Positions 2,779-64,000 of a stretch of DNA of 64,000 bases are shown piece by piece. The DNA is from an uncultured bacterium (GTDB lineage: Bacteria > Fermentibacterota > Fermentibacteria > Fermentibacterales > JCC-6), in contig CBDUZS010000004.1 in assembly GCA_965371785.1 (NCBI GenBank), positions 1,963 through 65,962 on the forward strand. Direction: 5' to 3'. Every line of letters begins with the position of its first letter. Position 1 is the first letter of the stretch. Under the pieces are notes generated by a model that was not told the DNA's origin, made no database searches, and was given only the letters and a program-made list of their open reading frames with translations. The position numbers and the translations under genes were made by a program.

Positions 2779-2797
2779 TTCCGGAAAGGACCGTCAG

Positions 2798-5039: not shown

Positions 5040-5073
5040 GCCGAGTGTACGGCGGATCCTGTAGGAGCCTGAT

Positions 5074-5499: not shown

Positions 5500-5528
5500 A
5501 AGAGGCTGACAGTGCGGCGGAGGAGCTG

Positions 5529-9966: not shown

Positions 9967-9971
9967 GGAGA

Positions 9972-12331: not shown

Positions 12332-12377
12332 TTCTGCTTGATGCATTCCCCTGTTTGACACGGCGGGGCAGCTGAAC

Positions 12378-21458: not shown

Positions 21459-21459
21459 T

Positions 21460-23439
21460 TCACGCCCCTCCCCTGTTTCCATCGGTTGTCGGGATTCTGA
21501 TGGTAAAGGTCGTTCCCTCTCCCTGCTTGCTGGTCACAGTGATGTTTCCGTTGTGCTCCTCGATTATCCGGTAGGCTATCGCCAGGCCCAGCCCGGTACC
21601 CCCCCCTGCCCTTTTCGTAGTGAAGAATGGATCGAATATCTGCTTGAGTGTTTTCTCGTTCATGCCCTTGCCGTTATCCGATATCTCGATTACCACCACT
21701 CCGGGAGTCTCTAACCTCGTTCTAATGGTTATCACGCCCTTCCTGTCATCGGGAATCGCCTGCCCGGCATTCACCAGGAGGTTGATGAAAACCTGCTCGA
21801 TCTTCTGGGAATTTCCAGTGAACGAAGGAAGATTTTCTACGAGATCCAGTTCGATATCAGCCCTTTTGTGAATCTCGTTGTGTACAAGCCTGGTGCTGGC
21901 TTCTATAAGTGTGTTCACGTCGACGGTGTCGATAAGCAGTCCTTCATCCTTCCTGGCAAATCCCCTCAGTCCCTCGACGATTCCCTTGATCCGTTCCGAT
22001 CCATGGGCCATATCATCGACGAGCGTCATAATGTGCTGCCTGAAGAAATCGTACTTCAGCCTCGCAATTTTGAGATCCGGGTGGGTATCCCTGTACTCGT
22101 CCAGAATGGGAAGAATATCCTCTAGAGACTGTTTGATTATGTTGACGTTTCCCCTGATGAATTGATTCGGATTGTTTATCTCATGACCGATTCCGCTGAC
22201 GAGCTGACCCAGAGATGCCAGTTTGTCCGCCTGCTGAAGTTGTTGCTCATAGGTTTTCTCGAGGGTTACATCCCTGTAGAATTCAAGGATTCCATCAACT
22301 TCATGCTCGGTGTTGTACACTGGAAGCGCGTGAACCTGAAGGAATTTATCCTCGTTCTTCATCGTCAGTGTTATGGGTGTCTTATCCCTGATTATCCTTG
22401 ACAGGCGGCAGTCCTCACAGGGCACATCCCTGCCGAAATACGCTTTGTAGCAGCTGATTCCAGGTTTGATATCTTCCCGATTGGTCATGACGATCTTTCG
22501 ATTCTTGTCGATGAGCATCACATCGTCGGGAATGGCCTGAAAGGTCGTCTCCAGTCTGGATCTGGCTTCTTCCCAGCCCCTGTTGACCCTGTCCAGGTAG
22601 GAATTGACAATTCCGAGTTTCGCCCGCTGGGCTTCTACTTCCTCGGTTCTACCGGCTATCTCTTTCTTCAGCTCTTTCAGCCGCTGATTGTACTCGTCCT
22701 CTTCATCGATCTTGAGGGCCAGTCTCTCCCTGAGTTCCTTGCGTTCCAGAGCAAGGCTGAGCATCCGTCCGATCTCGTTGATCATCCGCTGTTCCTCGGG
22801 AAGCAGTTCATGGCTGTCGTCCAGGTAACCCACCCGGATCTCGCCTTCGATCTGCTGCCCAATCTCCAGCTCTACGGTAAGGTACTTACTGGAAGCAGGC
22901 TTCTGGCCGTACTCGATTCCCCGGAAACGGGACCACACTACGACCTCGTCGGGGATCATCATACCCGGGCCGATATATTTCGGCAGATCGGTGAAGAACC
23001 TGCGAATAGAATCGGATGTTTCAATCCATTTAGCTACCTCGTAAAGGCAGCCCAGTTCCTTGATTCGCTCTTCCTTCTCCCACTCGTCCTGTTTCCCGAG
23101 GGAACCTATCCGGTTGCCGAAGAAGAGAAAAATATCTCCACTCTCCGGACCGGCGTATCCGGCTTTCAGAGGTATCGATTTTGAGCTGTCAGACAGCGTG
23201 GAGAGCACAGCAATACCCCGTTCTCCAGCCTTTGCCTGAGCCATCGCCGAGCGGAACGTGTCAAGAGATGTCTGAGCAAGGAGTTCCTCGAGATTAGTCG
23301 TTTCTTCCGGAAGACCAGATGAACAGCAATCCCTTACAAGAGTATGGTTTGCATAAACAATCCGTTCTTCAGCATCGACAACGAGAAGGTAATCGAAGTT
23401 GCCTTCCAGGAAGGCGTACAGGCTCTCGAGTCTGACCAT
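21460..23439 (-). CDS. Cytoplasmic PAS-domain sensor histidine kinase
   Basis: HisKA H-box GHEINNP. HATPase_c motifs DNGKGM and GGTGLGLAIAYRII. Coiled-coil/PAS region. GGGGAAGGGAG RBS. Confidence 0.85.
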   Translation of the reverse strand: MVRLESLYAFLEGNFDYLLVVDAEERIVYANHTLVRDCCSSGLPEETTNLEELLAQTSLDTFRSAMAQAKAGERGIAVLSTLSDSSKSIPLKAGYAGPESGDIFLFFGNRIGSLGKQDEWEKEERIKELGCLYEVAKWIETSDSIRRFFTDLPKYIGPGMMIPDEVVVWSRFRGIEYGQKPASSKYLTVELEIGQQIEGEIRVGYLDDSHELLPEEQRMINEIGRMLSLALERKELRERLALKIDEEDEYNQRLKELKKEIAGRTEEVEAQRAKLGIVNSYLDRVNRGWEEARSRLETTFQAIPDDVMLIDKNRKIVMTNREDIKPGISCYKAYFGRDVPCEDCRLSRIIRDKTPITLTMKNEDKFLQVHALPVYNTEHEVDGILEFYRDVTLEKTYEQQLQQADKLASLGQLVSGIGHEINNPNQFIRGNVNIIKQSLEDILPILDEYRDTHPDLKIARLKYDFFRQHIMTLVDDMAHGSERIKGIVEGLRGFARKDEGLLIDTVDVNTLIEASTRLVHNEIHKRADIELDLVENLPSFTGNSQKIEQVFINLLVNAGQAIPDDRKGVITIRTRLETPGVVVIEISDNGKGMNEKTLKQIFDPFFTTKRAGGGTGLGLAIAYRIIEEHNGNITVTSKQGEGTTFTIRIPTTDGNRGGA

Positions 23440-33039: not shown

Positions 33040-33099
33040 CAGTGTATGTAAATATCGAACAGGATCTCCTCCGTAAACGTTCATTAAAAGATGCGATTC

Positions 33100-33198
33100 G
33101 CCTTCTCATTCCGTCTGCTCGAAACCAGCCGATCGCTTAAGCATAACTCCTTTACCCGATCTTCCGTCAATCATCACTTTCACCGGATATTCGAGCAT
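33100..33198 (+). repeat. ~100-nt direct repeat copy A: relic 3' end of a PPDK_N-family gene on the minus strand (partner at 36400..36498)
   Basis: The shared core CTACCCGATCTTCCGTCAATCATCACTTTCACCGGATATTCGAGC is identical in both copies. On the minus strand it encodes LEYPVKVMIDGRSGKGVMLKRS, which matches the C-terminus of the 36403..39384 protein. Confidence 0.7.
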
Positions 33199-33372
33199 GA
33201 ACGGATCTGCTTCGAGGATGGCTGTCTCTTGACCCGCCAGCGCCGTCGGGGCATCTACAGAGAGCGGCACCAGATCCTCACACACCATCCGGAAGGATCG
33301 ATATTGAGGGACAGGAATCTCGACCGCATAGCAGGCAAGCGGGGAACCGACCCGATACCCCTCTACTCGCTA

Positions 33373-36303: not shown

Positions 36304-36399
36304 TCCCCCCTCCACTCCGTCGCCCCATCCGCTTGCTTACCTTCTGCTGAACACTGCCTGTTGCGATTGACATGAGGAGGCTGCTAAAATCAAATGGTC

Positions 36400-36498
36400 T
36401 TTTCATTCGATCCGCTCGAGATCAGACGATCTCTTGAGCATTACTCCTCTACCCGATCTTCCGTCAATCATCACTTTCACCGGATATTCGAGCCTGAT
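36400..36498 (+). repeat. ~100-nt direct repeat copy B, forming the genuine 3' end of the minus-strand gene 36403..39384
   Basis: See copy A; about 90% identity over ~95 nt. Confidence 0.7.
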
Positions 36499-39384
36499 GC
36501 GGCGCACATATTTCGTTTCCTCCACCGCAGGATTACAATCCAGCCAATCCCAGTCGATAGCATTGCCCTCCCGTACATGTGAGACCGAAAAGTAGCCAAC
36601 TCCGAGTGAGGTCATGTTCTGGAAGAAATGAGAGCCCTGAGAGGGTTCCACGTTCATATTTGTAAGGCTTACCTCGACAATCGAGGTCGCTCCGCAGATC
36701 TGGCTCCAGGTGACCGGTATACCCAGCCAGGAATCCGCTGATCCCCATCGACCGGGACCTATGAGGATGTAGGGAGTTCCAGCCGAGAACAGGCTGCTGT
36801 TCATTCGCGCTATCTCGACTGCGATATCCCGCGTGAGTGAAGCATCGAATGATTCCGGTCGAACGTAGACTATATCATGAATCGAATCGCTGACTCCGTT
36901 TCCGAGAACACTGTCACTCGTGCAGAACACCTGGTCCCTGTCAACGTCGCCGAGATCGACTTCGACCAGCTGCTCCGCCACGACCATCGGTCTGATCTGG
37001 AGAAGGGAGAATGTGGCCGGCAGCGGTTTTCTCCTGCCGAGTTCGACAGCGAATTCGATCTCTACCGGGCATCCCATCGCATGCTCACCCAGCTTCAGCA
37101 GCGTATCCGTAAGAGGGGCAAGCGGAAAGAGCTTGTTCTTGAGCACGTGGGCAAAGTTGATCACCCTTGGGCCTGCCCGGTTGATGCCGTCAACGATCAT
37201 GTCGTTATCGGCATCGTACGTGGAGGCAATGTAGTCGAGTGTCCCATCGGTTTCGGCGGAAGCAAGCTCCCGCGAAACCAGGAACTGATCTTCGTCTTCA
37301 ATGGATCTGTAGGTCGAATGATCCATGCTAATTGCGTAGAATTGCCTCTGGGAATCGTTGAGTGCGCTCCTGATCGTACCAAATTGCGGGAGGATTCTGG
37401 GATACTTCGGAGTGAACCTGAGGGATACCCCACCGTCAACGATTGTCTTCCCGAGCCCCAGGGCAACGTTTACAACTCCATCTTCGGGGTCAGCAGAACC
37501 TGTAGGATAGAAATTATACGAACGCCCCACTCCGGAGAAGTGCGGGTAGAATCCGCCGGGGAATTCGGATCCTGCCACTTCCTGTATCAGTATGGCCATC
37601 TTCTCCTCCTCGATCCTGTGATTCGTCGCCTCGATGTAGGATCGAGCAGCATGAAAGAAAGTGGATGCGTATACGAATTTAATCGAGGCTGCCAGATCGT
37701 TGAACCTCTTGTCGAAGGATATCGAATTATTAGGCAGCATCTTCGTGGTATAAATACCAGCAAATGGTTGACATAGCGCATCTTCCAGAAGACTGGAAGA
37801 TCTAACGGCAAGAGGTGTTCTCACCTCACCCAGGAAATCTCTCAGATCTCCCAGAATGACCGGGGGAAGATCTGCATTCAGAAACTGCCGAATTATGGAA
37901 AGATCTCGAGACGCATCCACAGCGAAACTGAGAAGGTCGTTCTGCATGATGAACTTGTCGAAGATATCGCTCGTTAGCACCAGTGTGCGTGGAATGGTCA
38001 CTGTCACATCCCTGAAACGACTTCCGTCGAAATTCAGGGCGAGTACGCGATCCAGGAATGCAAGGCCACGTCCCTTCCCTCCGATGGAGCCTCTGCCGAT
38101 TCTGCTGAACTGGGCATACTCCCGGTAGAATGTTCTACTGTAGGGAACGATCCTGCCCCTGTAGCTCTCCCTGCGGTATTCCCGGACAATACGGCTTGCT
38201 TCCCTGCGCAGTTCATCCCCGGCTGCACCGGAATCCTCTGTAAGGATATCCAGCCTGTCCGCTAGTTCGAGCTCCGTGTGTGATCTGAGCCATCTCGTCA
38301 TCTCTCCGGAACGGAGAGTAGAGGATACCGCATTCCCCGGGAGTTTATCGAGAGCAATACTCAGTGCTTCCAGGTTCGATACGCTGGTGATGCTCCTGCC
38401 GGAAGTATCTTTGAAAACAAGGCTTCCAAGACAGAACTTGCCTGCGAACTGTTCCCCTATATCTCTGAGCAGTGTTGGCGAACTTTTGGAAACGAATCCG
38501 GTCCCGAGTTCTTCCGCAATCAGTGAGGCATCCTCCTCGCTTGACTGTATCGATACCGGCATGCCCGGAAACCTGGCGCGGACGTATTCTATCAGATGGC
38601 GTCCCGCATCCGGATCGAGAACACCATCTCTCGGGAAACGAAGATCGGTAAAGAGCCCCAGGAGGTGTTTCCCATAATTGTCTACAAGCTGGATGGCTTC
38701 TTCGTAACAGGTGGCGAGAAGAAGTTTTGGCCTGGCCATTGCTCTCAATCTCCTGGAGGAATAGGAGACGTGCCCCTTCACTATCTCGCTTGTCTTGTCC
38801 CGTATCATCCCCAGCAGGCGGTGAATGTATCTCGAGTAGAAGAGGACGTTGTCCTCGACGAGAAGAAGGCTCAGGACACCACCCTGGCCGCTGTCGTGTG
38901 CAGCGTTCTTCATATCCTCTGCGAGCTGGATGATTCCGAGCAGAACTTCGCCATCGCCCTGCCAGAGGAAGACCCAGTCTACGGCATTGGTGTGATCCAG
39001 TGTCATGAACCTCTGCAGCTCGTACGTGTTGTAGGCAAGAACGGCAACGGGTGTGTCCGGTTTGAGTTCCTTCACCTTCCTGCCGAGAGTCACAGAATCC
39101 ATACCCTCTATCTGCATCATGCACACGACCAGATCGAATGGCTCACTCTCCAGCATCTCGAGAGCCTTCTCTCCCCCGGATACCTGGCTGATCGACGGGA
39201 AGTACCCCATCTCGTTTCTGCTGTACCACTGGGCGAGGAGATCGTTGAGTCGCCCATCCTCCTCGAGCATGAAGAAGTCGTACAGGCTGGAGACGAAGAG
39301 CACTTTTCTCACCTTGAACGGCATGAGCTGATGCAGCCTCGAGACGAATCTGCTGTCCAGCTGGAGGGAATCTGCCCCTGGCAC
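36403..39384 (-). CDS. Receiver-domain-fused PPDK_N (PEP/pyruvate-binding ATP-grasp) protein, convergent paralog
   Basis: Pseudo-REC plus REC (LLLVEDN .. LFTDLRF .. SIQSSEED .. VSKSSP). GKGRGLAFLD and VRSSSLLEDALCQPFAGIY. C-terminal ILIGPGRWGSADSWLGIP ... SQGSHFFQN. Confidence 0.7.
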   Translation of the reverse strand: MPGADSLQLDSRFVSRLHQLMPFKVRKVLFVSSLYDFFMLEEDGRLNDLLAQWYSRNEMGYFPSISQVSGGEKALEMLESEPFDLVVCMMQIEGMDSVTLGRKVKELKPDTPVAVLAYNTYELQRFMTLDHTNAVDWVFLWQGDGEVLLGIIQLAEDMKNAAHDSGQGGVLSLLLVEDNVLFYSRYIHRLLGMIRDKTSEIVKGHVSYSSRRLRAMARPKLLLATCYEEAIQLVDNYGKHLLGLFTDLRFPRDGVLDPDAGRHLIEYVRARFPGMPVSIQSSEEDASLIAEELGTGFVSKSSPTLLRDIGEQFAGKFCLGSLVFKDTSGRSITSVSNLEALSIALDKLPGNAVSSTLRSGEMTRWLRSHTELELADRLDILTEDSGAAGDELRREASRIVREYRRESYRGRIVPYSRTFYREYAQFSRIGRGSIGGKGRGLAFLDRVLALNFDGSRFRDVTVTIPRTLVLTSDIFDKFIMQNDLLSFAVDASRDLSIIRQFLNADLPPVILGDLRDFLGEVRTPLAVRSSSLLEDALCQPFAGIYTTKMLPNNSISFDKRFNDLAASIKFVYASTFFHAARSYIEATNHRIEEEKMAILIQEVAGSEFPGGFYPHFSGVGRSYNFYPTGSADPEDGVVNVALGLGKTIVDGGVSLRFTPKYPRILPQFGTIRSALNDSQRQFYAISMDHSTYRSIEDEDQFLVSRELASAETDGTLDYIASTYDADNDMIVDGINRAGPRVINFAHVLKNKLFPLAPLTDTLLKLGEHAMGCPVEIEFAVELGRRKPLPATFSLLQIRPMVVAEQLVEVDLGDVDRDQVFCTSDSVLGNGVSDSIHDIVYVRPESFDASLTRDIAVEIARMNSSLFSAGTPYILIGPGRWGSADSWLGIPVTWSQICGATSIVEVSLTNMNVEPSQGSHFFQNMTSLGVGYFSVSHVREGNAIDWDWLDCNPAVEETKYVRRIRLEYPVKVMIDGRSGRGVMLKRSSDLERIE

Positions 39385-41504: not shown

Positions 41505-43862
41505 CTATCTGGTCAGGTACCCGATTGCCGAGTCGGTATTTCCATCCATGACAACCGACAGGCTTGCTCCATCGGACTCCATGGATACCTGAACTACCTT
41601 GATCTGTTTTGCCAGGTGCTTCGCGCCGGGAACGAGCTTGCACAGCCTGTTCCGTGACTTCATGAAGAAATCCTCGTTGAATATTATGCCTGGTTCGTCC
41701 GGGTACAGCGGCAGGTATATGATTCCCGCTTCGACCAGGTCCTGGAAGAAATGTGTTCCGAAAGACAGATCGGGCATGTACCCCTTCTTCATCCTGGCGA
41801 CTTCGATAAGCATTGCGGTGTTGTTGATGTCGGCGTAACCGACCTTGACGCCGAGTTTGATGTCTCCCCTGCTCCCCCACCTGCCGGGCCCAATCAGTAT
41901 GAATTTCCGCTGAGGCAGAACCTTGTTCAGCCTACCGACAACGTGTCCCACTTCAATGAGTTCTTCGAGACTTTCCAGCCTGTCGTACTCCACAGGGTCA
42001 ACGTAGACGACGAATTCGATGCCTTCACAGATGCCGGATGTAATGTACTTACCGGCGGTGAATACTATGTCCTCCTCGGGAACATCGTCCGGGACGACCA
42101 CCTCTCCGATTTCTCCGGAATAGCTCTGTGGTCTGCACTGGAGCAGGTAGGGAACCTGGATGTCATCGGCGTATGCGAATTCGACGTCTACGGGAACACC
42201 TATTTCCTTCTCCAGTATCTGGAGTATCGTCTGAATCAGCAGAGGGAACGGGCTTCTCGAGAGCAGGCGAGAGAATGTAATGACCGTTTCCTCGTTCTCC
42301 ACGTTGAAAAGGCTTCCCATCGGCGGAGAGAGGTTACCATCTTTGTATAGTGATATGATGTAAGAGAGAACGGGATAACTGCTTCCATGTGCCTTTACGA
42401 GATCGTCGAAGAGAACGGTCTCGAACCTGCGGTTTTCGAGATTGATCACGTCGATATGCTTCTGGGCATATCGAATCGTTTCCTCGGGTGTGACATTCAC
42501 TCTCAGACCCGGCTGTCCGGGGCAGAGAAGCATCGGAAAATCCTGACCCGTCCTGTCCACTGCCCTGGTTCCAAGGCCTGTAACCAGCCTTACTATTCCG
42601 TCCTCGCGCCTGATCCTGGGAGACCACCGGAACTCGTTCCTGCTGAAAGCTACACCTGCAAAAGCGGGGAAGTAGTACTTGCCGACCCGTTTTCCGACGA
42701 CTTCCTGGATGATGATTCCCATTTCCTCGTTGAAATCGAGAAGGCCGCGCTCCCTTCTGTACTCTATCGGGTCGGGACTGAACACACTTGCATAGACTTC
42801 CATTATCGCGTCTGCAAGCGCTTCCAGCCTTTCCATCTTGCTTCCGACGTTGGCGACGAAGAGGCTCTTGTATTTACCCGCAAAGGCAGACCCTACACTG
42901 TCTTCGAGCAGACTGGACGAGCGGACAACGAGCGGTACGTTTCCGAACTGATCGAGCGCAACGTTGAGCCCCGACATTATTCCCGCTGGCAGCAGAGAGC
43001 TCTTGAAGATCTGCCGAAGCAGACTGTACTCCTTTCTAAGCTCATCCGGATCGGAATATTTTATCGACAACAGTTCTTCGAGTGCATTGTGGTGGATGAA
43101 TTCGAAGATGGCATCACTGGATATGTACCATGTTTTGGGGACCTTCAGGTTCCTGAGAACGACGTTGTCTTTCCTGGCGGAATAGGATTCCAGTATCTTT
43201 TTCGCCCTGAACAGACCCGCTGCCTTTCCCCCGAGTCTGCCGCTGCCCGTGGCCGGGCCGATCGTGTGGTCGAGAACCTCGATGAAGTCAATAATTCTTA
43301 CACGGTTCTTGGTCGTGTTGATGTATGTGAGATCGGTACTGAACAGCCTCCTGATGAGAGCGACTCTGATTCCCATGCTCTCTTCCTTGTCGAGCACCTT
43401 GTGTGATTCGGGAAGAAGGGAGAACCTGTCGAGAGCCGCACTGAGCTCGACCAGAGGTACATCTTTCTGCTCTACCAGGATGGAGAGGAACCGTGTGCTT
43501 TCGTACCGGAGCCAGCGGGTCAGCATTGCGGATATCTCGCTCGAGGACAGTTCCTCCTCTGCGATCCTGAAAACCTCGCTGGTGAAGAACTCGATTGCGG
43601 AATGGTTGATCCTCGGCATCGGCTGGTTTTCTCCCCAGGCCGCACCCGTTTCGTAATCGTCAGGACTGTATACCAGCAGGCGTTCCATGACGTCGCTCAT
43701 CTTCTTCACGTTACGTTTGAACAGGTAGTTCATCATCTTCCGGCCAAGACGTTTCATGAGAATGGGATTGGTTTCGCTGAGAAGGCTGACGATCACCTTC
43801 CATTCAGGATCACTTCTCTCAGTGTTTTTCTTCCTGATATCGCGTTTGTCGGCATCGTGCAT
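41505..43862 (-). CDS. PPDK_N (PEP/pyruvate-binding ATP-grasp) domain protein without receiver domains; third paralog
   Basis: GGKAAGLFRA and VRSSSLLEDSVGSAFAGKY. C-terminal ILIGPGRWGSRGDIKLGV ... SFGTHFFQD. 785 aa. Confidence 0.7.
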   Translation of the reverse strand: MHDADKRDIRKKNTERSDPEWKVIVSLLSETNPILMKRLGRKMMNYLFKRNVKKMSDVMERLLVYSPDDYETGAAWGENQPMPRINHSAIEFFTSEVFRIAEEELSSSEISAMLTRWLRYESTRFLSILVEQKDVPLVELSAALDRFSLLPESHKVLDKEESMGIRVALIRRLFSTDLTYINTTKNRVRIIDFIEVLDHTIGPATGSGRLGGKAAGLFRAKKILESYSARKDNVVLRNLKVPKTWYISSDAIFEFIHHNALEELLSIKYSDPDELRKEYSLLRQIFKSSLLPAGIMSGLNVALDQFGNVPLVVRSSSLLEDSVGSAFAGKYKSLFVANVGSKMERLEALADAIMEVYASVFSPDPIEYRRERGLLDFNEEMGIIIQEVVGKRVGKYYFPAFAGVAFSRNEFRWSPRIRREDGIVRLVTGLGTRAVDRTGQDFPMLLCPGQPGLRVNVTPEETIRYAQKHIDVINLENRRFETVLFDDLVKAHGSSYPVLSYIISLYKDGNLSPPMGSLFNVENEETVITFSRLLSRSPFPLLIQTILQILEKEIGVPVDVEFAYADDIQVPYLLQCRPQSYSGEIGEVVVPDDVPEEDIVFTAGKYITSGICEGIEFVVYVDPVEYDRLESLEELIEVGHVVGRLNKVLPQRKFILIGPGRWGSRGDIKLGVKVGYADINNTAMLIEVARMKKGYMPDLSFGTHFFQDLVEAGIIYLPLYPDEPGIIFNEDFFMKSRNRLCKLVPGAKHLAKQIKVVQVSMESDGASLSVVMDGNTDSAIGYLTR

Positions 43863-54198: not shown

Positions 54199-54495
54199 AT
54201 GAAGTACTGGCGCAAGCCCCTGGACATCGACAAGGTGAAGATCCCGCACGGTACCGTCACCATCATCGCAGAAAGGTGCAAGGGTTGTGGCTTCTGTGTG
54301 GAGTACTGCCCGAAGGAAGTTCTGGTCATGTCCGAAGAGTTCAATGCAAAGGGTTATCATCCTCCCAAGGTTATCAAGGAGGGCGAATGCGTCAACTGCA
54401 ACCTCTGCGAGATGATATGCCCCGACTTCGCCATCTTCAGCGTTGAATCACCCGAAGAGGAATCACCGGAAGAGTCCGGGAACTCAGAGGAATAA
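54199..54495 (+). CDS. 2-oxoacid:ferredoxin oxidoreductase delta subunit (2x[4Fe-4S] ferredoxin)
   Basis: CKGCGFCVEYCP and CVNCNLCEMICP. The acidic C-tail is typical of PorD/KorD. Confidence 0.8.
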   Translation: MKYWRKPLDIDKVKIPHGTVTIIAERCKGCGFCVEYCPKEVLVMSEEFNAKGYHPPKVIKEGECVNCNLCEMICPDFAIFSVESPEEESPEESGNSEE

Positions 54496-54508
54496 GGAGG
54501 GAATCGCT

Positions 54509-55666
54509 GTGAAAGCAGACCCAGCAGGTGTGCTGACCGGTGTCCACTACCTGGACGGTGACTTCGCTTGCGGTGAGGGCGCGATGGCCGCGGGCTGCCG
54601 TTTCGTGGCAGGATACCCGATCACGCCCTCTACAGAAGTTGTGGAGAGGATCTCGCGGAGATTCCCATTCATGGGAGGAACGTTCATCCAGATGGAGGAC
54701 GAACTGGGGAGTATGGCAGCGGTTGTTGGCGCCGCATGGACGGGATCGAAGTCCCTGACCGTCACCAGTGGACCCGGATTCAGCCTGATGATGGAGAACA
54801 TCGGACTGGCCGCGATGATGGAAACACCCTGCGTAATCGTGAACGTTATGCGCGGGGGACCGTCTACCGGACTGCCGACGATGGTCGGGCAGGCTGACAT
54901 CATGCAGGCGCGCTGGGGTTCTCATGGCGACTACGAAATAATTGCCCTCAGCCCGCAGTCCCCTCAGGAGGCCTTCGACCTCTGCATCGAAGCCTTCAAC
55001 CTCTCGGAGGTCTACAGGGTACCGGTGATGCTGATGCTGGATGAATGCGTCGGCCACATGACCGAGAAGGTAGTGATTCCTCCGGCTTCGGAGATAGAGA
55101 TCACTCCCAGGATACTCTCCTCCAAGAGCCCTGAAGATTACTATCCCTACGATTTCGAAGGGGATTCCATTCCCGAGTTCGTCAGGGCAGGCGACGGGTA
55201 CAGGTTCCACACCACAGGACTGACCCATGACAAACGGGGTTATCCTCTAATGAGCACGGACTGCCAGGAGTGGAACGTCCGCCACCTGATAGACAAGATA
55301 CGGAACAACGTTGACAAGATCACGCGATACGATGAAGAGGATCTCGATGGAGCAGAAGTAGTGGTTCTTGCCTACGGAATCACCTCCAGGGTCACCCGCA
55401 TGGGGATCGACATGGCGAGGAAGAAGGGGGTCAAGGTCGGCTTCATAAGGCTGATCGTTATCTGGCCCTTCCCCGAGAAGCTCATCAGGGACCTCGCCTC
55501 TAAGGTCAAGGCTTTTGTTGTTCCGGAGATAAACTACGGGCAGATAGTGCTCGAGGTGGAGAGGTGCGCCGGGGACAAGGCTGAAGCGATATGCGTACCC
55601 CACGGGGGAGGCAGTGTACACGACCCGGAGTGCATCTGCAAGGCGATCATGGAGGCAGCGAAATGA
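54509..55666 (+). CDS. 2-oxoacid:ferredoxin oxidoreductase alpha subunit
   Basis: GTG 54509 with AAGGAGGG RBS. GYPITPSTE and TSGPGFSLM motifs. Confidence 0.85.
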   Translation: MKADPAGVLTGVHYLDGDFACGEGAMAAGCRFVAGYPITPSTEVVERISRRFPFMGGTFIQMEDELGSMAAVVGAAWTGSKSLTVTSGPGFSLMMENIGLAAMMETPCVIVNVMRGGPSTGLPTMVGQADIMQARWGSHGDYEIIALSPQSPQEAFDLCIEAFNLSEVYRVPVMLMLDECVGHMTEKVVIPPASEIEITPRILSSKSPEDYYPYDFEGDSIPEFVRAGDGYRFHTTGLTHDKRGYPLMSTDCQEWNVRHLIDKIRNNVDKITRYDEEDLDGAEVVVLAYGITSRVTRMGIDMARKKGVKVGFIRLIVIWPFPEKLIRDLASKVKAFVVPEINYGQIVLEVERCAGDKAEAICVPHGGGSVHDPECICKAIMEAAK

Positions 55667-56556
55667 GCGCACCAGAGTCAGGTACAGCAGCAACCGTAGA
55701 GCATCCGATATCACCATACCTCCGGATGGATCGTATTCCCCACATATGGTGTCCCACTTGCGGAATAGGCACCGTCGTCAAGTGTTTCGCAACGGCCCTG
55801 GGAGAACTGGAGATGGACCTGGACAAGTGCGCCATCGTCTCCGGAATAGGGTGTACCGGCCGGGTGGCCGGGTACATGAAACTCGATGCGTTCCACACGA
55901 CTCACGGAAGGGCGATACCATTCGCAACTGGTCTCCACCTGGGCAGACCCGAACTGAATGTTACCGTGTTCTCCGGGGACGGCGACCTGGTGGGCATCGG
56001 TGGTAACCACTTCATCCATGCCGCCAGAAGGAATATCGACCTTCTGGTGATCCTGATAAACAACTTCATCTACGCCATGACCGGCGGTCAGAACGCTCCG
56101 ACGACACCGATCTCTGCAAAGTCATCCACCATGCCCTTCGGCAATTACGAACAGCCGTTCAACATCCCCTACCTCGCTGACTGCTGCGGCGCCAACTACG
56201 TGGCACGCTGGACGAGCCTGCACATAAGAAGGGTTACCAAGGCCTTCAAGGAAGCTCTCCAGAAGAAGGGCTTCCGTCTGATCGAAGTCATAACCCCCTG
56301 CTCCACTCTCTACTCGCGGCTGAACAAGCTTGGATCCGGGCTGGATCTGATGCGTTTCTATCACGACAACGCCGAGATCCGCCATGGAGCCGACACCAGA
56401 GAGCTGGCGATTGACTTCCAGAAGAAGATCATCTGCGGCAAGTTCATCGACAGGGAGAGACCATCCTTCAGTGAAAGCAGGACCGCACACTACGAGAGAA
56501 CGCTCGGAGACAAGTTCGTTCCCATGCCCCCGGATGGGGGGTGGCTCCATGAGTAA
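55663..56556 (+). CDS. 2-oxoacid:ferredoxin oxidoreductase beta subunit (TPP-binding)
   Basis: WCPTCGIG, GIGCTGR and GDGDLVGIGGNH TPP motif. Confidence 0.85.
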   Translation: MSAPESGTAATVEHPISPYLRMDRIPHIWCPTCGIGTVVKCFATALGELEMDLDKCAIVSGIGCTGRVAGYMKLDAFHTTHGRAIPFATGLHLGRPELNVTVFSGDGDLVGIGGNHFIHAARRNIDLLVILINNFIYAMTGGQNAPTTPISAKSSTMPFGNYEQPFNIPYLADCCGANYVARWTSLHIRRVTKAFKEALQKKGFRLIEVITPCSTLYSRLNKLGSGLDLMRFYHDNAEIRHGADTRELAIDFQKKIICGKFIDRERPSFSESRTAHYERTLGDKFVPMPPDGGWLHE

Positions 56557-57148
56557 GAGGATCGAAATACGCATTACCGGGTTCGGAGGACAGGGCGTCG
56601 TGCTCTCAGGTCATATCGTCGGGCGTGCTTTTGCAGTCGAAGCCGGACACCACGCAACCATGATACAGAGCTTCGGTCCCGAAGCACGTGGTTCCGCGTG
56701 CAGCACCACACTCACCCTTTCAGATACCGAGGTGCTCTACCCGTACATACACAGGCCGGACTTCTTCGTCGTCATGTCCTCCGAGGGCTACGACAAGTTC
56801 AGAGACGAACTCAAACCAAAGGGCATCCTGTGCTACGAAAAGGATCTCGTGAAGCCTGAACTGAAAAAGGGCCAGCCCTCCTATGGGATATCCTCGACGA
56901 GAATCGCCGAGTCACTGGGCAGGACTATTGTACAGAACATAGTGATGGTCGGTTTCTTTGCCGCAGCTTCAGGGATCGTCAGCCGTTTACAGATGCGGAG
57001 CTCGGTGGAGCATTCCGTTCCTCCAGGCACGGAGGAGCTGAACCTCAAAGCATTCGACGCCGGCTGGAACTACTTTCAGGAGGAGTACGGCAAGGGGAAA
57101 ACCGGCAGTGCGAAAAAGAAGTCAGCCGGAACGAAGAAGACTGGATAG
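56549..57148 (+). CDS. 2-oxoacid:ferredoxin oxidoreductase gamma subunit
   Basis: ATG 56549 (MSKRIEIRITGFGGQGVV) overlaps the beta-subunit stop. Lys-rich C-terminus. Confidence 0.8.
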   Translation: MSKRIEIRITGFGGQGVVLSGHIVGRAFAVEAGHHATMIQSFGPEARGSACSTTLTLSDTEVLYPYIHRPDFFVVMSSEGYDKFRDELKPKGILCYEKDLVKPELKKGQPSYGISSTRIAESLGRTIVQNIVMVGFFAAASGIVSRLQMRSSVEHSVPPGTEELNLKAFDAGWNYFQEEYGKGKTGSAKKKSAGTKKTG

Positions 57149-57151
57149 CAT

Positions 57152-60100
57152 ATGCAGGACCAAGAAACTGACCGGGATCCGGAGATCATGGAGGAGGAAC
57201 CGGTAGTCGAGAAGAGGGCTCTGGTCATAGGTGGAGGAATTGCGGGCATACAGGCCGCTCTCGACCTTGCGGATGCAAGGATTCCAGTGACCCTCGTGGA
57301 GAGGTCCCCGGCCCTGGGCGGCCGGATGGCTCAGCTGGCCAAGACCTTTCCCTCGATGTACTGCTCCACTTGAATATTCGGGCCCAAGGCCATGGATGCC
57401 GGGCGGCATCCTCTGATCGACCTGGTGACGAATGCGGAGGTCATCGAATGCGAAGGTGACCCTGGCAGTTTCCATGTGAAAATCCGAAGGTATCCCCGCT
57501 ACGTGCTAGAGTCCTGCGTGGCATGCGGCCAGTGCGAGGATGTCTGCCCACAGGTCGGCGGCAACGAGTTCGACATGGGACTCAAGGCCAGGAAAGCGAT
57601 CTACAGACCCTACCCGCAGTCCGTTCCATCTACTTATACCATCGATCCCGATGCCTGCCTCAATTTCATGAGCTTCCTGACCGAGAAACAGAAGCAGAGG
57701 TTCGCGAAAGTTCAGACAGCCAAGCAAAAGAAAGACTCCGACTACGTACCCAACATCCTCGTGTGCGGTCACTGTCAGAAGGCCTGTGACGTGAACGCAA
57801 TAGACTTCGACATGACGGTAGAAGACCTCGAATTAGACGTTGGAGCCATACTGGTCGCTGTCGGCTTCAAGGAGTTCGACGCAAGGAAGCTTGGTAACTA
57901 CGGGTACGGACGCCTGCCGAACGTCGTCACAAGCCTCGAGCTCGAACGCATGCTAAGTCCCGCAGGTGTGACACAGGGTCACGTGGTGCGTCCCTCCGAC
58001 AGAAAGGTTCCGAGGCGCATTGTATTCATCCAGTGCGTCGGGGCAAGGGGTGAGGGCGGCAGACCTTACTGCAGCAGGTTCTGCTGCATGAACGCGGTCA
58101 AGGATTCCATGCTGATACGTCAGCATCAACCAGAAATCGAGGAGATATCCATCCTCTACACCGACCTGCGTGCCTTCGGAAAAGGTTTCGACGACTTCGT
58201 TCAGCGCTCGTTCAACGAGGAGAGTGCCGTGTACATCAGGGGACGACCCGCGAAAGTGGATCACCTGCCCGACGGTGACACGCTGGAGGTCTTCGTAGAG
58301 GACACCCTGGGTCACGAACAGAGACGCATACCTGCAGACATGGTCGTCCTTTCGGTTGCAGCAGCACCAAACGATGGTGCGGTGGAGCTGGCAGGCATTC
58401 TGGGAATAGACACTGACGAGTACGGATTCATCGCCCGTAAAGATGCAGCAATCTCGGCCGTCGAATCCACAAGGGAGGGCATCTACGTTTGCGGGAGTGC
58501 AGTAGGTCCCCAGATAATACCCGACTGCGTTGCGCAGGCGTCGGCATCTGCAGCGAGAGCAGGACTCTACCTTGCTGCACACAGGAAGGAAGAGGAAGAG
58601 AGGAAGGTCGAGCCCATGGACCTCTCCGGTCCTCCACGCGTTGGCGTTCTGATCTGTCATTGTGGGATGAACATAGCAGGCGTGCTGGACATCGAGAACC
58701 TGGTGGACTTCGCATCGACGCTTCAAGACGTTGTCGCCGTGAAGGAAGACATCTTCGCATGCTCCATGACAGGTCAGGACGAGCTGATCGAGATGATAAA
58801 GGAACACGGTCTCAACAGGATTGTTGTTGCAGCCTGTACACCCCGCACGCACGAGCCGGTTTTTCGCGATGCACTCGACCGGATAGGATTCAACCCCTAC
58901 CTGCTGGAGATGGCCAACATCAGGGATCAGTGCTCCTGGGTCCACTCGAAGCAGGTGAACGAAGCACAGGAGAAAGCCAGAGTGCTGATCCACATGAGCG
59001 TGGCAAGGGCAAAGAGACTCGAACCGCTGTACCAGACCGAAGCACCCATGACCAGGGCAGCTCTGGTCATCGGGGGCGGAATCGCAGGTATCCAGGCCGC
59101 AACCGACATGGCCATTCAGGGATTCCACGTAACACTCGTGGAGAAGACGGGCCGGCTCGGGGGACGCCTGGCAGACCCATGTCTGAAGCATCTCTACCCG
59201 AATATGAGATTAGCCTCGGAAGTGCTTGAAAAGAAGACCAGACTGCTCGAAGAAAGCGGTGCTGACGTACTGCTCAACACCGAAGTCGACCGGATAGAAG
59301 GGTTTGTCGGCAGCTTTGAAGTTACGTTCAAGGGAGAAACGACCGGAACGGCACCATTCGGCGCGATAATCATCGCTATCGGAGCAGACCTCTACGAGCC
59401 CGGGGACGGTGAGTTCGGGTACGGGAAGTTCGGCAACGTGATTACAAGCGAGCAACTCGAGAAAGCTTTCTGCAAAGGTGATGAGCTGAAATTCGGTGGG
59501 ATAGAGCCTAAGACCGCATCGTTCATTCTCTGCGTAGGCTCCCGGGAGAGAGACGGTTTCACAGGCTGTTCCCGATACTGCTGCCCGACCGCTATCAAAC
59601 AGGCGATGGAGCTGCACCGTCGGGGGATCGACACGACCGTTTTCTACAGGGACATAAGGACTGTATCCACGGGTGCCGAGGAGATGTACCGGCAGGCCCG
59701 TGGCGAGGGAGTCCTATTCATCAGGATTCCCCCCGAGCAGAAACCGGAGGTAGAGGGCAGAAAGCGGGTCGAGGTCGTCCGATGCTTCGATGACCTCCTC
59801 GGCAGGAAACTGGAAGTACCAACCGACCTCGTTGTACTCAGTGTGGGCATGAGACCCCTTCAGCCCGAGACGGAAACGTTCAAGGAGATGCTCAAGACCA
59901 GCGTCGGACTGGACGGATTCCTGCTCGAACGTCATGCCGATCTGGCACCCGTCGAGACAGTGGTCGAAGGAGTCATGCTGGCCGGGACGGCTCAGGGACC
60001 CAAGGATATCGTCGATTCGGTCGCACAGGCTTCGGCCGCAGCGGCAAAGGCAACAGTGTTCCTGGCGTTCGACAGTGTAAAACTCGATCCGACGATATCC

Positions 60101-60340
60101 GTTGTCAACGAAGAGAAATGCCGTGGCTGCGGTAAATGCCAGGAGATCTGCGACTTCAACGCACCGAAACTCGAAGAGATCGAACCCGGGCTCTTCGTAG
60201 CAAGAATTAATGCTTCCCTCTGCAAGGGCTGCGGAACCTGCGCCAGCTGGTGTCCGTCCGGAGCAATCGTCGCGAAGCACTTCACTGACGGACAGGTATA
60301 CGCGATGATCAGCGCCTTCTTCGGAGAAGAGAGCGTATGA
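57152..60340 (+). CDS. hdrA: Selenocysteine-containing fused 1.5x HdrA-like flavoprotein (in-frame UGA at 57371-57373 read as Sec)
   Basis: ORFs 57152..57373 and 57392..60340 share one frame. Across the UGA the protein reads [26 protein letters not shown], which matches the HdrA motif DCSxC-ILAPKM with Sec at the second Cys. The rest is collinear with 5529..8588 ([15 protein letters not shown]; [15 protein letters not shown]; C-terminal [19 protein letters not shown]). Confidence 0.8.
57394..57411 (+). promoter_or_regulatory. SECIS-like hairpin 21 nt downstream of UGA (GGAUGCC-GGGC-GGCAUCC)
   Basis: Perfect 7-bp stem with a 4-nt loop. Its position and spacing are identical to the second Sec site at 62617..62634. 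Confidence 0.6.
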
Positions 60341-60804
60341 CACCCGCGAAGAAGAGGACCAGCTGGGACCCCTCTATTGTCGTTTTCGCATGCAACTGGT
60401 GCTCCTACGCCGGGGCAGACACGGCTGGGGTATCGCGGTTCGAACACCAGCCGCACTTCAGGATGATAAGGGTGATGTGCTCGGGGAGAATTCAGCCGGC
60501 ATTCGTCTTTCGTGCTTTCGAGAAGGGTGCGGACGGCGTCATGGTTTCCGGGTGCCATTTCGGTGAGTGCCACTACATCTTCGGTAATGAGAGAGCAGTC
60601 GAACAGTTCGAGAAAACGATGAACGTGGTGAAGATGCTCGGAATAGAGGAGGGAAGGCTTCGGCTCGAGTGGATAAGCTCTGCTGAAGGAGCACGATTCG
60701 CCGAGATCATCGACGAATTCACAGACCAGGTTCGTGCGCTGGGTCCGAATCCCCTGGGCGGCAGGCCGGGCGGAAAAATACGCAAGAAGGGTGTTGCAGA
60801 GTGA
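60337..60804 (+). CDS. mvhD: MvhD/FlxD-type subunit
   Basis: CNWCSYAGADTAG, CSGRIQP and GCHFGECHY motifs. The ATG overlaps the hdrA stop. Confidence 0.85.
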   Translation: MTPAKKRTSWDPSIVVFACNWCSYAGADTAGVSRFEHQPHFRMIRVMCSGRIQPAFVFRAFEKGADGVMVSGCHFGECHYIFGNERAVEQFEKTMNVVKMLGIEEGRLRLEWISSAEGARFAEIIDEFTDQVRALGPNPLGGRPGGKIRKKGVAE

Positions 60805-61955
60805 GCAGTCAGAACGCCGGATCGATTCAGGAGCTGGCCAGCAGAACTAGAGCCTGGGCCTGCTACGACTGTGGGAAGTGTACGGCTACATGCCCGATAA
60901 CAAGGGCAGGCGCTGACTACAGCCCGCGGAAGCATGTTCTCGAAACGAACCTGGCTCACATTGAGGAGATCAGGGCCGATGGAAGCCTCGCAGTTTGCCT
61001 TACGTGCAGCCAGTGCGACGAGAGGTGCCCCGTCGAGGTCGATTATACCGGGCTGGTCCAGGGTCTCCGCGAGATGGTCTTCGACCCTTCTGCCGAACCG
61101 GAGTGCCCACACGGCGGTGCTCTCCAGTCCATTATGAGAATGATGGCGCGGGGGGGCACACAGCAGGCCAGACTCGACTGGATCGACGATTCCCTCGAGG
61201 TAAGCGCGAAGAAGGGGAAGGTCTTCTACTGGACCGGCTGCACCATGTACTTCGATGCCTTCTTCCCGGAATTCGAAGTTGCAACTCTGGGGGGAACGAA
61301 AGCAGCTATCCGATTACTCAACGCCCTCGGTGAGAAACCCGTGGTGTCACCAGACGAGAGGTGCTGCGGACACGATCTCCTCTGGAACGGTGACAGAAAC
61401 AGCTTCGAAGCTCTCGCGAAGTACAATATCAGCCTGGTGGAGAAGAGCGGAGCCGAACTCCTGGTTACATCCTGCGCCGAGTGCCTCCGCACGTGGAAAA
61501 TCGACTACAAACCCTACTACAGCACGAATCCACCGAAGATCATGCACATCTCAGAGCTGCTGGCCAACAGAACCGAGGATCTGAAACTGCAGATGACGGA
61601 AGAGAAGAAGGTCACATTCCAGGACCCCTGCCGCATGGGTCGACACCTCGGGATATACGACCCGCCAAGGCAGGTGCTGACCTCCGTTCCAGGCGTGGAA
61701 CTGATCGATATGCCGCGATCTGGTCGAGGTGCAATCTGCTGCGCGGGCGGCACCTGGTCGAACTGCGACCGCTACTCAAAGAAGATCCAGGTGAACCGCC
61801 TCAGGGAGGCCAGGGCAACCGACGCCGAGATACTGGTAACCGCCTGTCCGAAGTGCCAGGTTCACTACCGGTGCGCAATGAATGACCCGAACATCGGAGA
61901 CGATATCGCTATAGAGCTGCGCGACGTAGCAGAGATAGTCGCCGAAGCATTGTAG
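60801..61955 (+). CDS. HdrD-like (HdrC+HdrB fusion-type) protein: N-terminal 2x[4Fe-4S] ferredoxin plus two CCG domains
   Basis: CGKCTATCP and CSQCDERCP clusters. Two CCG motifs: ERCCGHDLLWNG..CAEC and AICCAGGTWSN..CPKC. GTG 60801 overlaps the mvhD stop. Confidence 0.7.
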   Translation: MSSQNAGSIQELASRTRAWACYDCGKCTATCPITRAGADYSPRKHVLETNLAHIEEIRADGSLAVCLTCSQCDERCPVEVDYTGLVQGLREMVFDPSAEPECPHGGALQSIMRMMARGGTQQARLDWIDDSLEVSAKKGKVFYWTGCTMYFDAFFPEFEVATLGGTKAAIRLLNALGEKPVVSPDERCCGHDLLWNGDRNSFEALAKYNISLVEKSGAELLVTSCAECLRTWKIDYKPYYSTNPPKIMHISELLANRTEDLKLQMTEEKKVTFQDPCRMGRHLGIYDPPRQVLTSVPGVELIDMPRSGRGAICCAGGTWSNCDRYSKKIQVNRLREARATDAEILVTACPKCQVHYRCAMNDPNIGDDIAIELRDVAEIVAEAL

Positions 61956-61987
61956 AAGAGTGTTCTGAACCAAGCGAAGGGAGGGTG

Positions 61988-64000
61988 ATGACTCCAGAGA
62001 AGACGGAGGATCAACTGAGGATCGGAGTGTTCGTCTGCGACTGCGGATCGAACATAGCCGGCACGGTTGATACCGCCGCACTCGCCGAATGGTCCAGCAG
62101 CCTGCCCGATGTGGTGTACGTCGGGAGGAACAGGTACTGCTGCGCGGACCCTGGTCAGAACGAAATCAAGGAGGCCATCGCTGAACACCGCCTTGACCGG
62201 GTGGTCGTAGCTGCCTGCACTCCCAGGCAGCACGAGTTCACGTTCAGGCAGTGTGTGAGCGATGCAGGGCTCAACCCCTACCTCCTCGAGATGGCCAACC
62301 TGAGGGAGCACTGCTCATGGGTTCACCGTAAGGACCCCGATGGTGCCAACCTGAAGGCCCGGGACCTGGTGGCGAGTGCAGTCGGGAGGGCTCACTTCCT
62401 CGAGCCGCAGGAGGAGATGACCATGCCTGTAACGCGAAAAGCGCTGGTCATCGGAGGCGGTATCTCAGGGATAGAAGCAGCCCTCGAACTCGCAGATTCA
62501 GGCCACAGGGTGGTCCTGGTGGAAAAGGAGGCATCAGTCGGTGGGATAATGGCACAACTCTACAAGACCTATCCCACAATGGACTGCTCGATATGAATAC
62601 TCGGGCCGAAGGCCATGGATGTCGGTCGGCATCCGAATATCGAGCTTCTGACGTTCTCCGAGATCGAAGAGGTTTCCGGTTACGTCGGTAACTTCACCGT
62701 CAGGATCAGAAAGAAAGCAAGGTACGTAGACCCCGATCAGTGCAATTCCTGCGGGGACTGTGTAGACGTTTGCCCCGTTGCCGTACCCGACGAGTTCCAG
62801 CTGGGTCTATCCTCGCGAAAAGCTATCTATATACCATTTCCGCAAGCGGTTCCCTGTACATACATCCTTAACATGAAGGACTGCCTGGGGAATAACCCCA
62901 TTGCATGCGGTGAGTGCGCAATAGTCTGTGAAAAGGAAGCAATCAACTACGACGACGAGGACGAGATCATAACGCGTGAGGTGGGAACGGTAATAATCGC
63001 CACCGGCCTCGACGTCTACGATCCAACCGAAATGGATGAGTACGGGTACTCTCGGTTCGACAACGTGATCACCTCTATGGAGTTCGAGCGGCTGATCTCC
63101 GCAGGCGGGCCAACTATGGGTCATTTCGTGAGACCATCCGATCAGACGCAGCCGAAACGCATTGGCTTCATCCAGTGCGTGGGTTCGCGAAACACGAAGA
63201 TCGGTAGACCCTACTGCTCCAACATCTGTTGTATGAACACGGTGAAGGACACCCTCCTCCTGGCCGAACACTACTCGGATATCGAGAACAACGTCTTCTA
63301 CCAGGATATCAGGGCGTTCGGAAAGTCCTTCGAGGACCTGTACCAGAGGTCCAAGGAAGCGGGAACCCGCTACATCAGGGGAATACCCGGTGACATAGAG
63401 GAGGATCCCGAAACCAGGAACCTCGTGCTCACCGTGGAGAACACGACTTCCGGGAAACTGGAGCGACATGAGCTGGACATGGTCGTTCTCTCCGTCGGCG
63501 TAGTGCCCTCCGAGGGTCAACAGAAGGTATCGAGCCAGTTCAATCTGTCGAAGACATCTGACGGCTTCTTCATGGAGTCGCACCCCAAACTCAGACCGGT
63601 GGAAGCACCCACAAGGGGCGTCTACTTCGCCGGATTCTGCGAAGCGCCAAAGGACATCAAGGACTCGGTCTGCCAGGCTGGAGCCGCAGCTTCCAAGGCT
63701 GGGGTTCTCCTCAACGCGGGCAAGATAAAGATCGAGGCGATAACCAGCGTTATAGATCCGGACCTGTGCATGAAATGCGGCATATGTGCGAAGGTCTGCC
63801 CGTACGGTGCAATTCACTGGAAGAAGGGTGAGATCGCCACCGTCATAGAAGCTGCCTGCGCCGGATGCGGCAACTGCGGCGCAGCGTGCGCTTTCGGTGC
63901 CATCACAATGCGCCACTTCACCGATGCCCAGCTCATGGCACAGATCAGGGCTATCCTGGCGGAGAATGCAAAGGACAAGGTCTTCGTCTTCGCCTGTAAC
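61988..64000 (+). CDS. hdrA: Selenocysteine-containing canonical HdrA fused to a C-terminal MvhD domain (3'-truncated at window edge; in-frame UGA at 62594-62596)
   Basis: ATG 61988 with GGGAGGG RBS. N-domain RIGVFVCDCGSNIAG. LVIGGGISGIEAALELAD. The motif TYPTMDCSI-U-ILGPKAMDVGRHPNIELL has Sec at the second Cys of DCSxC. Downstream: CNSCGDCVDVCPV, IQCVGSRNTKIGRPYCSNICCMNTVKD, CMKCGICAKVCPY..CAGCGNCGAAC. The last codons KVFVFACN begin an MvhD-type CNWC motif. Confidence 0.8.
62617..62634 (+). promoter_or_regulatory. SECIS-like hairpin 21 nt downstream of UGA (GGAUGUC-GGUC-GGCAUCC; GGUC apical loop)
   Basis: 7-bp stem with one G-U pair. The GGUC loop resembles the bacterial SECIS apical loop. 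It is a near-identical counterpart of 57394..57411. Confidence 0.6.

Follow-up and report, generated by a model that had tools for sequence, protein, structure and literature searches.

Does the in-frame UGA codon near the 3' end of a 64,000-nt stretch of DNA from an uncultured bacterium (the window, by which we mean the whole stretch that was analysed) end the translation of an HdrA-like gene, or is it read as selenocysteine (Sec)? The open reading frame (ORF) in question begins at ATG 61988 on the plus strand and runs through 202 sense codons, a TGA at 62594-62596 and a further 468 sense codons to base 64000, and its translation meets no other in-frame stop between that TGA and the window edge. 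From the conservation of the codon and of a hairpin downstream of it, we consider the best explanation of the whole, with a probability of about 0.9, to be that the gene encodes a Sec-HdrA-MvhD protein in which UGA is decoded as selenocysteine via a bacterial selenocysteine insertion sequence (SECIS). The features of the gene are as follows.

61976-61985, plus strand: Shine-Dalgarno-like purine run GAAGGGAGGG ahead of ATG 61988, read from the sequence
61988-62593, plus strand: HdrA residues 1-202, with the N-terminal iron-sulfur (Fe-S) domain (VFVCDCGSNIAG...) and the start of the FAD-binding, thioredoxin-reductase-like (TrxR-like) domain (GGGISG), from the translation
62594-62596, plus strand: UGA codon, the predicted selenocysteine (residue 203) of a CxxU motif; in frame and aligned with Cys197 of 5ODC_A
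62597-63973, plus strand: HdrA residues 204-662, with the remaining TrxR-like domain, an inserted ferredoxin domain and a C-terminal 2x[4Fe-4S] ferredoxin domain; Pfam Fer4 matches
62617-62634, plus strand: predicted bacterial SECIS hairpin GGAUGUC-GGUC-GGCAUCC, 7 bp, from folding, frozen synonymous sites, covariation, RNAalifold and published criteria for bacterial SECIS elements (bSECIS criteria)
63974-64000, plus strand: first nine residues (DKVFVFACN) of a fused MvhD domain, cut by the window edge; residues 663-778 match 5ODC_D

The interrupted gene and its relatives

For the homology comparison, the halves on either side of the UGA were joined and extended past the window edge with contig L001 (ENA ERZ25748748 NODE_10248), which was recovered by exact-protein look-up with the free-standing MvhD of the window, overlaps the window by 4071 bases, of which 7 differ, and reaches 2.1 kb further. 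Residues 9-659 of the joined protein are collinear with the crystallised HdrA 5ODC_A (E 5.5e-233), the part before the UGA aligning with residues 3-196 of that chain and the part after it up to residue 652, and Pfam FAD/NAD Rossmann matches lie at amino acids 148-189, just before the TGA. The local peptide TYPTMDCSI-UGA-ILGPKAMDVGRHPNIELL reads as the initial annotation had quoted it, at the same motif position as a first UGA site further upstream, and the UGA is aligned exactly on Cys197 of 5ODC_A, in the motif DCSIC197ILAPK. Cys197 of HdrA is a ligand to the [4Fe-4S] cluster in the N-terminal domain of the other HdrA protomer, a cluster that electrons pass on their way from the bifurcating FAD to ferredoxin (PMC9012536).

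The last codons of the window (KVFVFACN) match the N-terminus of the free-standing MvhD two genes upstream, SIVVFACNWCSYAG, a protein that begins ...SIVVFACNWCSYAGADTAG, and the initial annotation had read them as the start of an HdrA2-type fusion in a frame running to the window edge. The extension bears this out: in L001 there is no stop directly after the position of the window edge, and the ORF goes on as FACNWCSYAGGDTAG..., takes in a complete MvhD domain and ends in a stop after a total of 817 amino acids. Residues 663-778 match the separate MvhD chain 5ODC_D (E 3e-35). With Cys in place of Sec, the L001-extended sequence scores 1132.6 bits against a cut-off of 1100 for NCBIfam NF040770 (CoB-CoM heterodisulfide reductase HdrA2), its residues 11-790 falling on positions 1-775 of the 777 in the model. 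Judged by these matches, the gene is one for an HdrA2-type flavin/iron-sulfur protein of 817 amino acids, an HdrA with a C-terminal MvhD, from an uncultured bacterium.

The comparative set was drawn from a scan of 185,579 species genomes, which gave 411 relatives; the best 80 of the 411, with 65-80% amino acid identity, were kept. These 80 loci are labelled as Candidatus (Ca.) Fermentibacteria, Acidobacteriota, Planctomycetota, Gemmatimonadota, Zixibacteria, Eisenbacteria, KSB1, Fibrobacteraceae, Latescibacterota, Krumholzibacteriota, Methylomirabilota and others, with more than 15 phylum labels in all, and the closest of them (80% amino acid identity) is in a Ca. Fermentibacteria metagenome-assembled genome (MAG). 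The homologous codon is TGA, with the frame kept, in all 80 orthologues. TGA also stands at 38 sites in the upstream tandem-HdrA paralogues of the same loci, and among the resulting 118 aligned sites there is not one Cys codon. The tblastn matches cover residues ~1-800 in the 80 loci, i.e., coding is conserved on both sides of the UGA. Since the matches extend to about residue 800 in every orthologue, the MvhD fusion is present in all 80 and is therefore ancestral to the group. Inside the window itself, the Cys-type HdrA paralogues have TGC (5703) and TGT (12597) at the position of the UGA, and a scan of both strands for in-frame TGA codons with long flanking ORFs and a bSECIS-like hairpin left only the two HdrA sites as credible.

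The window is metagenomic sequence of which the quality is not established, and the in-frame TGA could on that ground be a sequencing or assembly error, a pseudogene lesion, or a codon of a reassigned code in which UGA stands for Trp or Gly. However, two independent contigs that are nearly identical both have the same TGA, as do 80 other species, and the residue aligned with it in homologues is Cys rather than Trp or Gly. Of the 37 long ORFs in the window, 23 end in TGA, which makes it the commonest ordinary stop there; a reassigned code is therefore excluded, and the recoding must be context-dependent. We regard error, lesion or reassignment as extremely improbable.

The hairpin downstream of the UGA

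The initial annotation had described a GGUC-loop hairpin here at the same offset as a hairpin at the first UGA site, and both were found, each 20 nt after its TGA. The GGUC loop is shared with the SECIS of Escherichia coli fdhF. The published bSECIS criteria are a loop of 3-9 nt with a G in its first two positions, a stem of 4-16 bp, a UGA-to-loop distance of 16-37 nt and a minimum free energy of at most -7.5 kcal/mol (PMC13188914). The hairpin at 62617-62634 falls within all of these limits: it has a 7-bp stem, a 4-nt loop (62624-62627) with G at positions 1 and 2 that begins 27 nt after the UGA, and a dG of -8.8 kcal/mol.

The support for the hairpin is comparative, not thermodynamic. Among the 118 aligned sites, the codons just after the UGA vary synonymously, with Ile encoded by ATT, ATC and ATA in 51, 38 and 29 sites and Gly by GGC, GGG, GGT and GGA in 48, 45, 15 and 10. 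At the hairpin, the codons are the following.

Codon +8 after the UGA, Asp: GAT in 118/118; background in the same genes 29%
Codon +9 after the UGA, Ala or Val: GCC in 91, GTC in 25; background not applicable
Codon +10 after the UGA, Gly: GGT in 115/118; background in the same genes 14%
Codon +11 after the UGA, Arg: CGG in 97, CGA in 18, AGG in 3; the commonest Arg codon in the same genes is CGC, at 40%
Codon +12 after the UGA, His: CAT in 118/118; background in the same genes 26%

Covariation is seen in the stem between the second base of codon +9 and the third base of codon +11, which pair as C-G (91 sites), U-A (18) or U-G (7), with no case of C·A; the codon pairs behind this are GCC-CGG (91), GUC-CGA (18) and GUC-CGG/AGG (7), with GCC-CGA absent. 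At the outermost pair (36/53), G-C (68) alternates with C-G (8), and the Met/Ile and Pro/Arg changes that bring this about are coupled. Across the 84-column alignment A1, 94.9% of cells are paired, whereas sliding the 3' partners lowers this to 24-58%; in 500 shuffles, neither the pairing nor the covariation score that was observed was reached even once, and RNAalifold, run without a hint, gave exactly this 6-bp helix and no other. On this evidence from aligned sequences, the hairpin is under selection as RNA.

These results bear on the simplest reading of the codon, namely that the UGA is a true stop that yields a 202-amino-acid N-terminal piece, followed by a 608-amino-acid piece restarted at ATG 62615. 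Gene callers did split L001 in this manner (genes 2059-2667 and 2686-4512), an in-frame ATG does sit 7 codons past the TGA, and TGA is the usual stop of the window. The initial annotation had doubted such a split on the ground that the downstream half has neither a start nor a ribosome-binding site; the first part of that does not hold, as ATG 62615 is the start that the gene callers use, and the second does, as AAGG lies just 2-3 nt before this ATG and there is thus no properly spaced Shine-Dalgarno sequence. Moreover, 55 of the 118 sites have Ile or Leu, not Met, at codon +7, the equivalent of the ATG. A split at the UGA would bisect the FAD-binding domain and delete the Cys197-equivalent cluster ligand, and exactly this codon is TGA, never TAA or TAG, in all 118 sites with the frame kept. 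Synonymous sites frozen and a stem pair covarying only at the hairpin are expected of a SECIS, not of a restart site. Two separate polypeptides are, as such, not favoured, and we consider this reading very unlikely.

Several points weigh against the decoding of the UGA as Sec. A covariance-model search, which had been suggested as a check on the SECIS, gave no Rfam matches in the whole window at the gathering score, and so no SECIS family, and none in 62500-62750 at E<=10. Single-sequence folding of 67-101-nt segments in this GC-rich coding region is unexceptional (z -0.1 to -1.0). The SECIS of E. coli fdhF has G23/U24 in its apical loop, a bulged U17 and a position 11 nt after the UGA (PMC8659212), whereas the hairpin here lacks the bulged U, is fully paired in its stem and starts 20 nt after the UGA, not 11. 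Neither selA nor selB, selC or selD was found in the 64-kb window among the scanned ORFs or by a tRNA scan, which detected no tRNA at all and hence no tRNA-Sec. The 3' part of the gene was read from the 99.8%-identical contig L001 and not from the window's own contig.

The lack of any matching Rfam family and the non-significant z-scores, together with the fact that the stem falls in a highly conserved protein motif, also speak for the hairpin being a by-product of coding for the peptide M-D-A/V-G-R-H-P, or serving some other RNA function, rather than being a SECIS. Conservation of amino acids, however, cannot explain GAT in 118/118, CAT in 118/118 and GGT in 115/118 sites against usages of 29%, 26% and 14%, nor can it explain the covariation of Ala/Val with CGG/CGA. 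The Cys homologues have a different peptide at the hairpin position and no hairpin: the Cys paralogues in the window (5703 and 12597) and in L031 (10710) are unable to form it, with forced-fold energies of +0.5 to +4.1 kcal/mol. The hairpin is also tied to the TGA. Among 241 million metagenome records, an exact-match scan that covered the Cys half only (TGY ahead of GATGYCGGTCGRCAT) brought up just 2 in which the intact hairpin stands at the same spacing after a Cys codon. We judge a by-product or another RNA function to be highly improbable.

In both of the records that pair a Cys codon with the hairpin (L083 4280-4318 and L084 1474-1512), the gene is of HdrA2 type and has TGT ahead of the intact hairpin GATGCCGGTCGGCAT, which looks like the remnant of a SECIS after a recent conversion of Sec to Cys. 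Among the 77 sites with Ala at codon +6 (columns 31-33 of alignment A1; window 62612-62614), 76 use GCC, for which the background is 49%, and some constraint therefore reaches 5' of the stem. A possible lower helix (62586-62594 with 62637-62645) enclosing the UGA comes from the single-sequence fold of this same sequence. In 114 distinct sequences, 68% of its cells are paired versus 29-38% in slid controls, a comparison confounded by coding and composition; two of its pairs are mostly unpaired, AGC/AGT serine codons break it, and it is weak at the first UGA site. A small GGCC-GAA-GGCC hairpin directly after the UGA was considered as part of the element and rejected, being lost in the 40 sites that have AAG-ATG-ATG.

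With the SECIS reading retained, the element may have dictated the local protein motif, which is D-[A/V]-G-R-H in the Sec forms and V-D-V-A-K-H or T-E-C-I-R-H in the Cys forms. The 18-nt hairpin GAUGYC-GGUC-GRCAUC also provides a simple and specific signature with which to find these genes and join them correctly. Automatic gene callers cut the gene at the UGA into the 202- and 608-amino-acid products, and the same is expected for its numerous MAG orthologues; selenoprotein content and the capacity for Hdr-type electron bifurcation are therefore under-reported in several uncultured phyla.

Host, paralogues and gene neighbourhood

The closest structures to the protein are those of methanogen HdrA, and we therefore considered an archaeal origin with a SECIS in the 3' untranslated region. 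This was rejected on two grounds: genes for a histidine kinase and for a response regulator of the sigma-54-dependent NtrC type (20112-21479, minus strand) are present in the window, and each of the 80 related loci that the species-representative genome collection supplied is in a bacterial MAG. The window being bacterial, an intragenic, bacterial-type SECIS is the recoding signal to be expected. The bacterial origin, the agreement with the bSECIS criteria, the synonymous freezing and the compensatory change together uphold the initial reading of the hairpin as a bacterial SECIS.

The first UGA site belongs to a tandem HdrA gene upstream.

57371-57411, plus strand: paralogous candidate recoding site in the tandem HdrA gene 57152-60340 (1062 codons), with UGA 57371-57373 and hairpin 57394-57411; TGA in 38 orthologous upstream sites

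Its hairpin, GGAUGCC-GGGC-GGCAUCC, has a GGGC loop and a dG of -11.5 kcal/mol. The nucleotide contexts of the two UGA sites, previously put at about 85% identity, proved slightly less alike (80-82% over 45-60 nt and 76% over 96 nt), which is nevertheless far above the roughly 61-62% of the wider paralogous region. The two Sec-HdrA units share 46% amino acid identity over 387 aligned residues, no more than they share with the Cys paralogue at 5496 (47% and 44%), and each Sec copy has its own orthologues in other phyla. Of the two options offered in the initial annotation, a cassette conserved with its codon or one duplicated with it, the first is therefore the one to keep: the sequences point to a recoding cassette conserved in two old paralogues, not recently duplicated.

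The first half of the tandem HdrA has the Cys197-equivalent (Sec) and lacks the N-terminal Fe-S domain, and the second half has an N-terminal-type domain and lacks CxxC/U. Such complementary halves are known in the fused HdrAs of anaerobic methanotrophic archaea (ANME) and Moorella (PMC9012536); compared with ANME HdrA3/4, the pattern is alike and the halves are in the opposite order. The motif of this paralogue, SMYCS[T/A]-U-IF (window 57359-57376; L003 1367-1384), is common to the window and L003 only, the latter being the Ca. Fermentibacteria MAG with the best HdrA2 match, which is a hint that the source of the window is a Fermentibacterota-like organism.

Two genes lie between the tandem HdrA and the HdrA2-MvhD gene.

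60337-60804, plus strand: free-standing MvhD, Cys form; Pfam FlpD, conserved synteny
60801-61955, plus strand: HdrD/GlpC-like Fer4+CCG protein, Cys form; Pfam CCG, conserved synteny

A 2-oxoacid:ferredoxin oxidoreductase (POR alpha/beta/gamma) adjoins the Hdr genes, and the module as a whole spans 54443-64000 of the window and 4513-6144 of L001. In L001 it continues with an HdrC-like gene (4742-5245; TIGR03290 at 107.5 bits, below the equivalog cut-off of 160) and an HdrB-like gene (5245-6144; TIGR03288 at 286.0 bits, below the equivalog cut-off of 345.15). HdrC is present in 70 of the 80 loci and HdrB in 63. The order POR alpha/beta/gamma, tandem Sec-HdrA, MvhD, HdrD-like protein, Sec-HdrA2/MvhD, HdrC, HdrB is kept in roughly 55-60 of the 80 loci (L003-L082). 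The 229-nt gap between HdrA2-MvhD and HdrC in L001 holds an uncalled 50-amino-acid ORF, MKTTIETFRCMMCGYEYEEKVEEGEDKERTCPECRSNSIRHLMKKSRPPG, at 4561-4713, ~560 nt past the 3' end of the window, with a CxxC...CPxCRSNSIR zinc ribbon. It has a tblastn match in 73 of the 80 loci, between HdrA2-MvhD and HdrC in the loci listed, and its match to Pfam Zn_ribbon_8 is weak and below cut-off.

The MAGs that bear the module carry at least 15 phylum labels at 65-80% amino acid identity, which suggests that the POR-Hdr module has been horizontally spread. We found no description of a POR-Hdr gene cluster in these phyla in the searchable literature. A bolder proposal, which we put forward tentatively and think rather doubtful, is that this ~10-13 kb module (POR alpha/beta/gamma to HdrB, including the small zinc-ribbon protein), spread over at least 15 phylum labels with two obligatory selenocysteines and an almost invariant SECIS that would have dictated the local protein motif, might be a new selenium-dependent electron-bifurcating system leading from 2-oxoacid oxidation to a disulfide acceptor.

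Elsewhere, the window is unusually dense in Hdr-type electron-transfer genes. Its 5' quarter (62-16859) contains a minimum of three further HdrA-like genes, accompanied by partners of the Fer4/CCG and NAD-binding types.

1066-2778: further HdrA-like gene
5496-8588: further HdrA-like gene, tandem, with Cys at 5703
12378-16859: GltD-fused 'HdrL'-like protein of 1493 amino acids, with Cys at 12597

Apart from these, an 88%-identical direct repeat of 99 nt (33102-33200 and 36399-36497) lies at the starts of two large paralogous genes for phosphoenolpyruvate (PEP)-utilising-enzyme-like proteins, to which a third gene is related.

33091-36303, plus strand: PEP-utilising-enzyme-like gene
36403-39384, minus strand: PEP-utilising-enzyme-like gene
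41505-43862, minus strand: third, related PEP-utilising-enzyme-like gene

Proposed mechanism and comparison with known systems

In the mechanism that we propose, the UGA at 62594 would be decoded as selenocysteine during translation, with the hairpin 20 nt downstream (a stem of 6-7 bp and a GGUC loop) acting as a bacterial SECIS that would recruit SelB-GTP-Sec-tRNASec to the ribosome paused at the UGA. The Sec at the Cys197 position would then serve as one of the ligands of the [4Fe-4S] cluster that sits in the N-terminal domain of the partner protomer and, this position being a cross-protomer cluster ligand, selenium would probably stand in the electron path leaving the bifurcating FAD. The protein most likely works with the adjacent HdrC and HdrB, the upstream tandem Sec-HdrA, MvhD, the HdrD-like protein and the 2-oxoacid:ferredoxin oxidoreductase, an assembly that may form a cytoplasmic electron-bifurcating or confurcating module. 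The presence of Sec in 80 of 80 orthologues, with just 2 hairpin-bearing Cys variants, suggests that selenium at the Cys197 cluster-ligand position is functionally important, and if so, it would make the energy metabolism of these organisms selenium-dependent.

Sec-HdrA with a CxxU motif is a long-established prokaryotic selenoprotein family, with members in Syntrophobacter, Syntrophus, Desulfotalea, Moorella, Carboxydothermus and Methanococcales, and a 2006 study described hdrA genes fused in tandem as well as the clustering with MvhD/FrhD and GlpC-like genes (PMC1794560). In Desulfobacterium autotrophicum, Sec-HdrA and HdrL proteins adjoin mvhD (PMC2702500), and a 2026 review places the Sec-HdrA family under NF040770 (PMC13188914). 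The gene studied here belongs to the same family and has its CxxU at the same position as the Sec-HdrA of bacteria (Syntrophobacter fumaroxidans, Syntrophus, D. autotrophicum, Moorella and Carboxydothermus) and of Methanococcales and Methanopyrus, and it shares an intragenic SECIS with the bacterial members. Known bacterial Sec-HdrA clusters likewise have MvhD and GlpC/HdrD-like neighbours, but here these neighbours are Cys forms. The host also differs, being of an uncultured, non-deltaproteobacterial lineage, and instead of adjacent hydrogenase genes (frhA/frhG), a 2-oxoacid:ferredoxin oxidoreductase adjoins.

In its full-length domain architecture, the protein is like the HdrA2 of Methanosarcina (HdrA2B2C2, NF040770), which has the same HdrA with a C-terminal MvhD and adjoining hdrC and hdrB, and for which our sequence scores above the cut-off. 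It differs from that of Methanosarcina in its bacterial host, in having Sec in place of Cys at position 197 and in its gene order, A-(small zinc-ribbon ORF)-C-B; the F420H2/CoM-S-S-CoB chemistry of Methanosarcina is not to be assumed for this bacterial gene. The crystallised HdrABC-MvhAGD of Methanothermococcus thermolithotrophicus (5ODC) has MvhD as a chain of its own and Cys as residue 197, whereas here MvhD is fused and the residue is predicted to be Sec.

With the SECIS of fdhF, the hairpin has in common that it is intragenic, lies 3' of the UGA and has an apical G-U dinucleotide of the kind recognised by SelB (GGT-C in 115 of the 118 sites). The hairpin would work like the fdhF SECIS without being a copy of it. 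Knowledge of Sec-HdrA with a bacterial SECIS dates back to 2006, and nothing here overturns existing knowledge. What is modestly new is that all 80 recovered orthologues have Sec and a near-invariant SECIS across many uncultured phyla, and that the POR-Hdr gene module is conserved.

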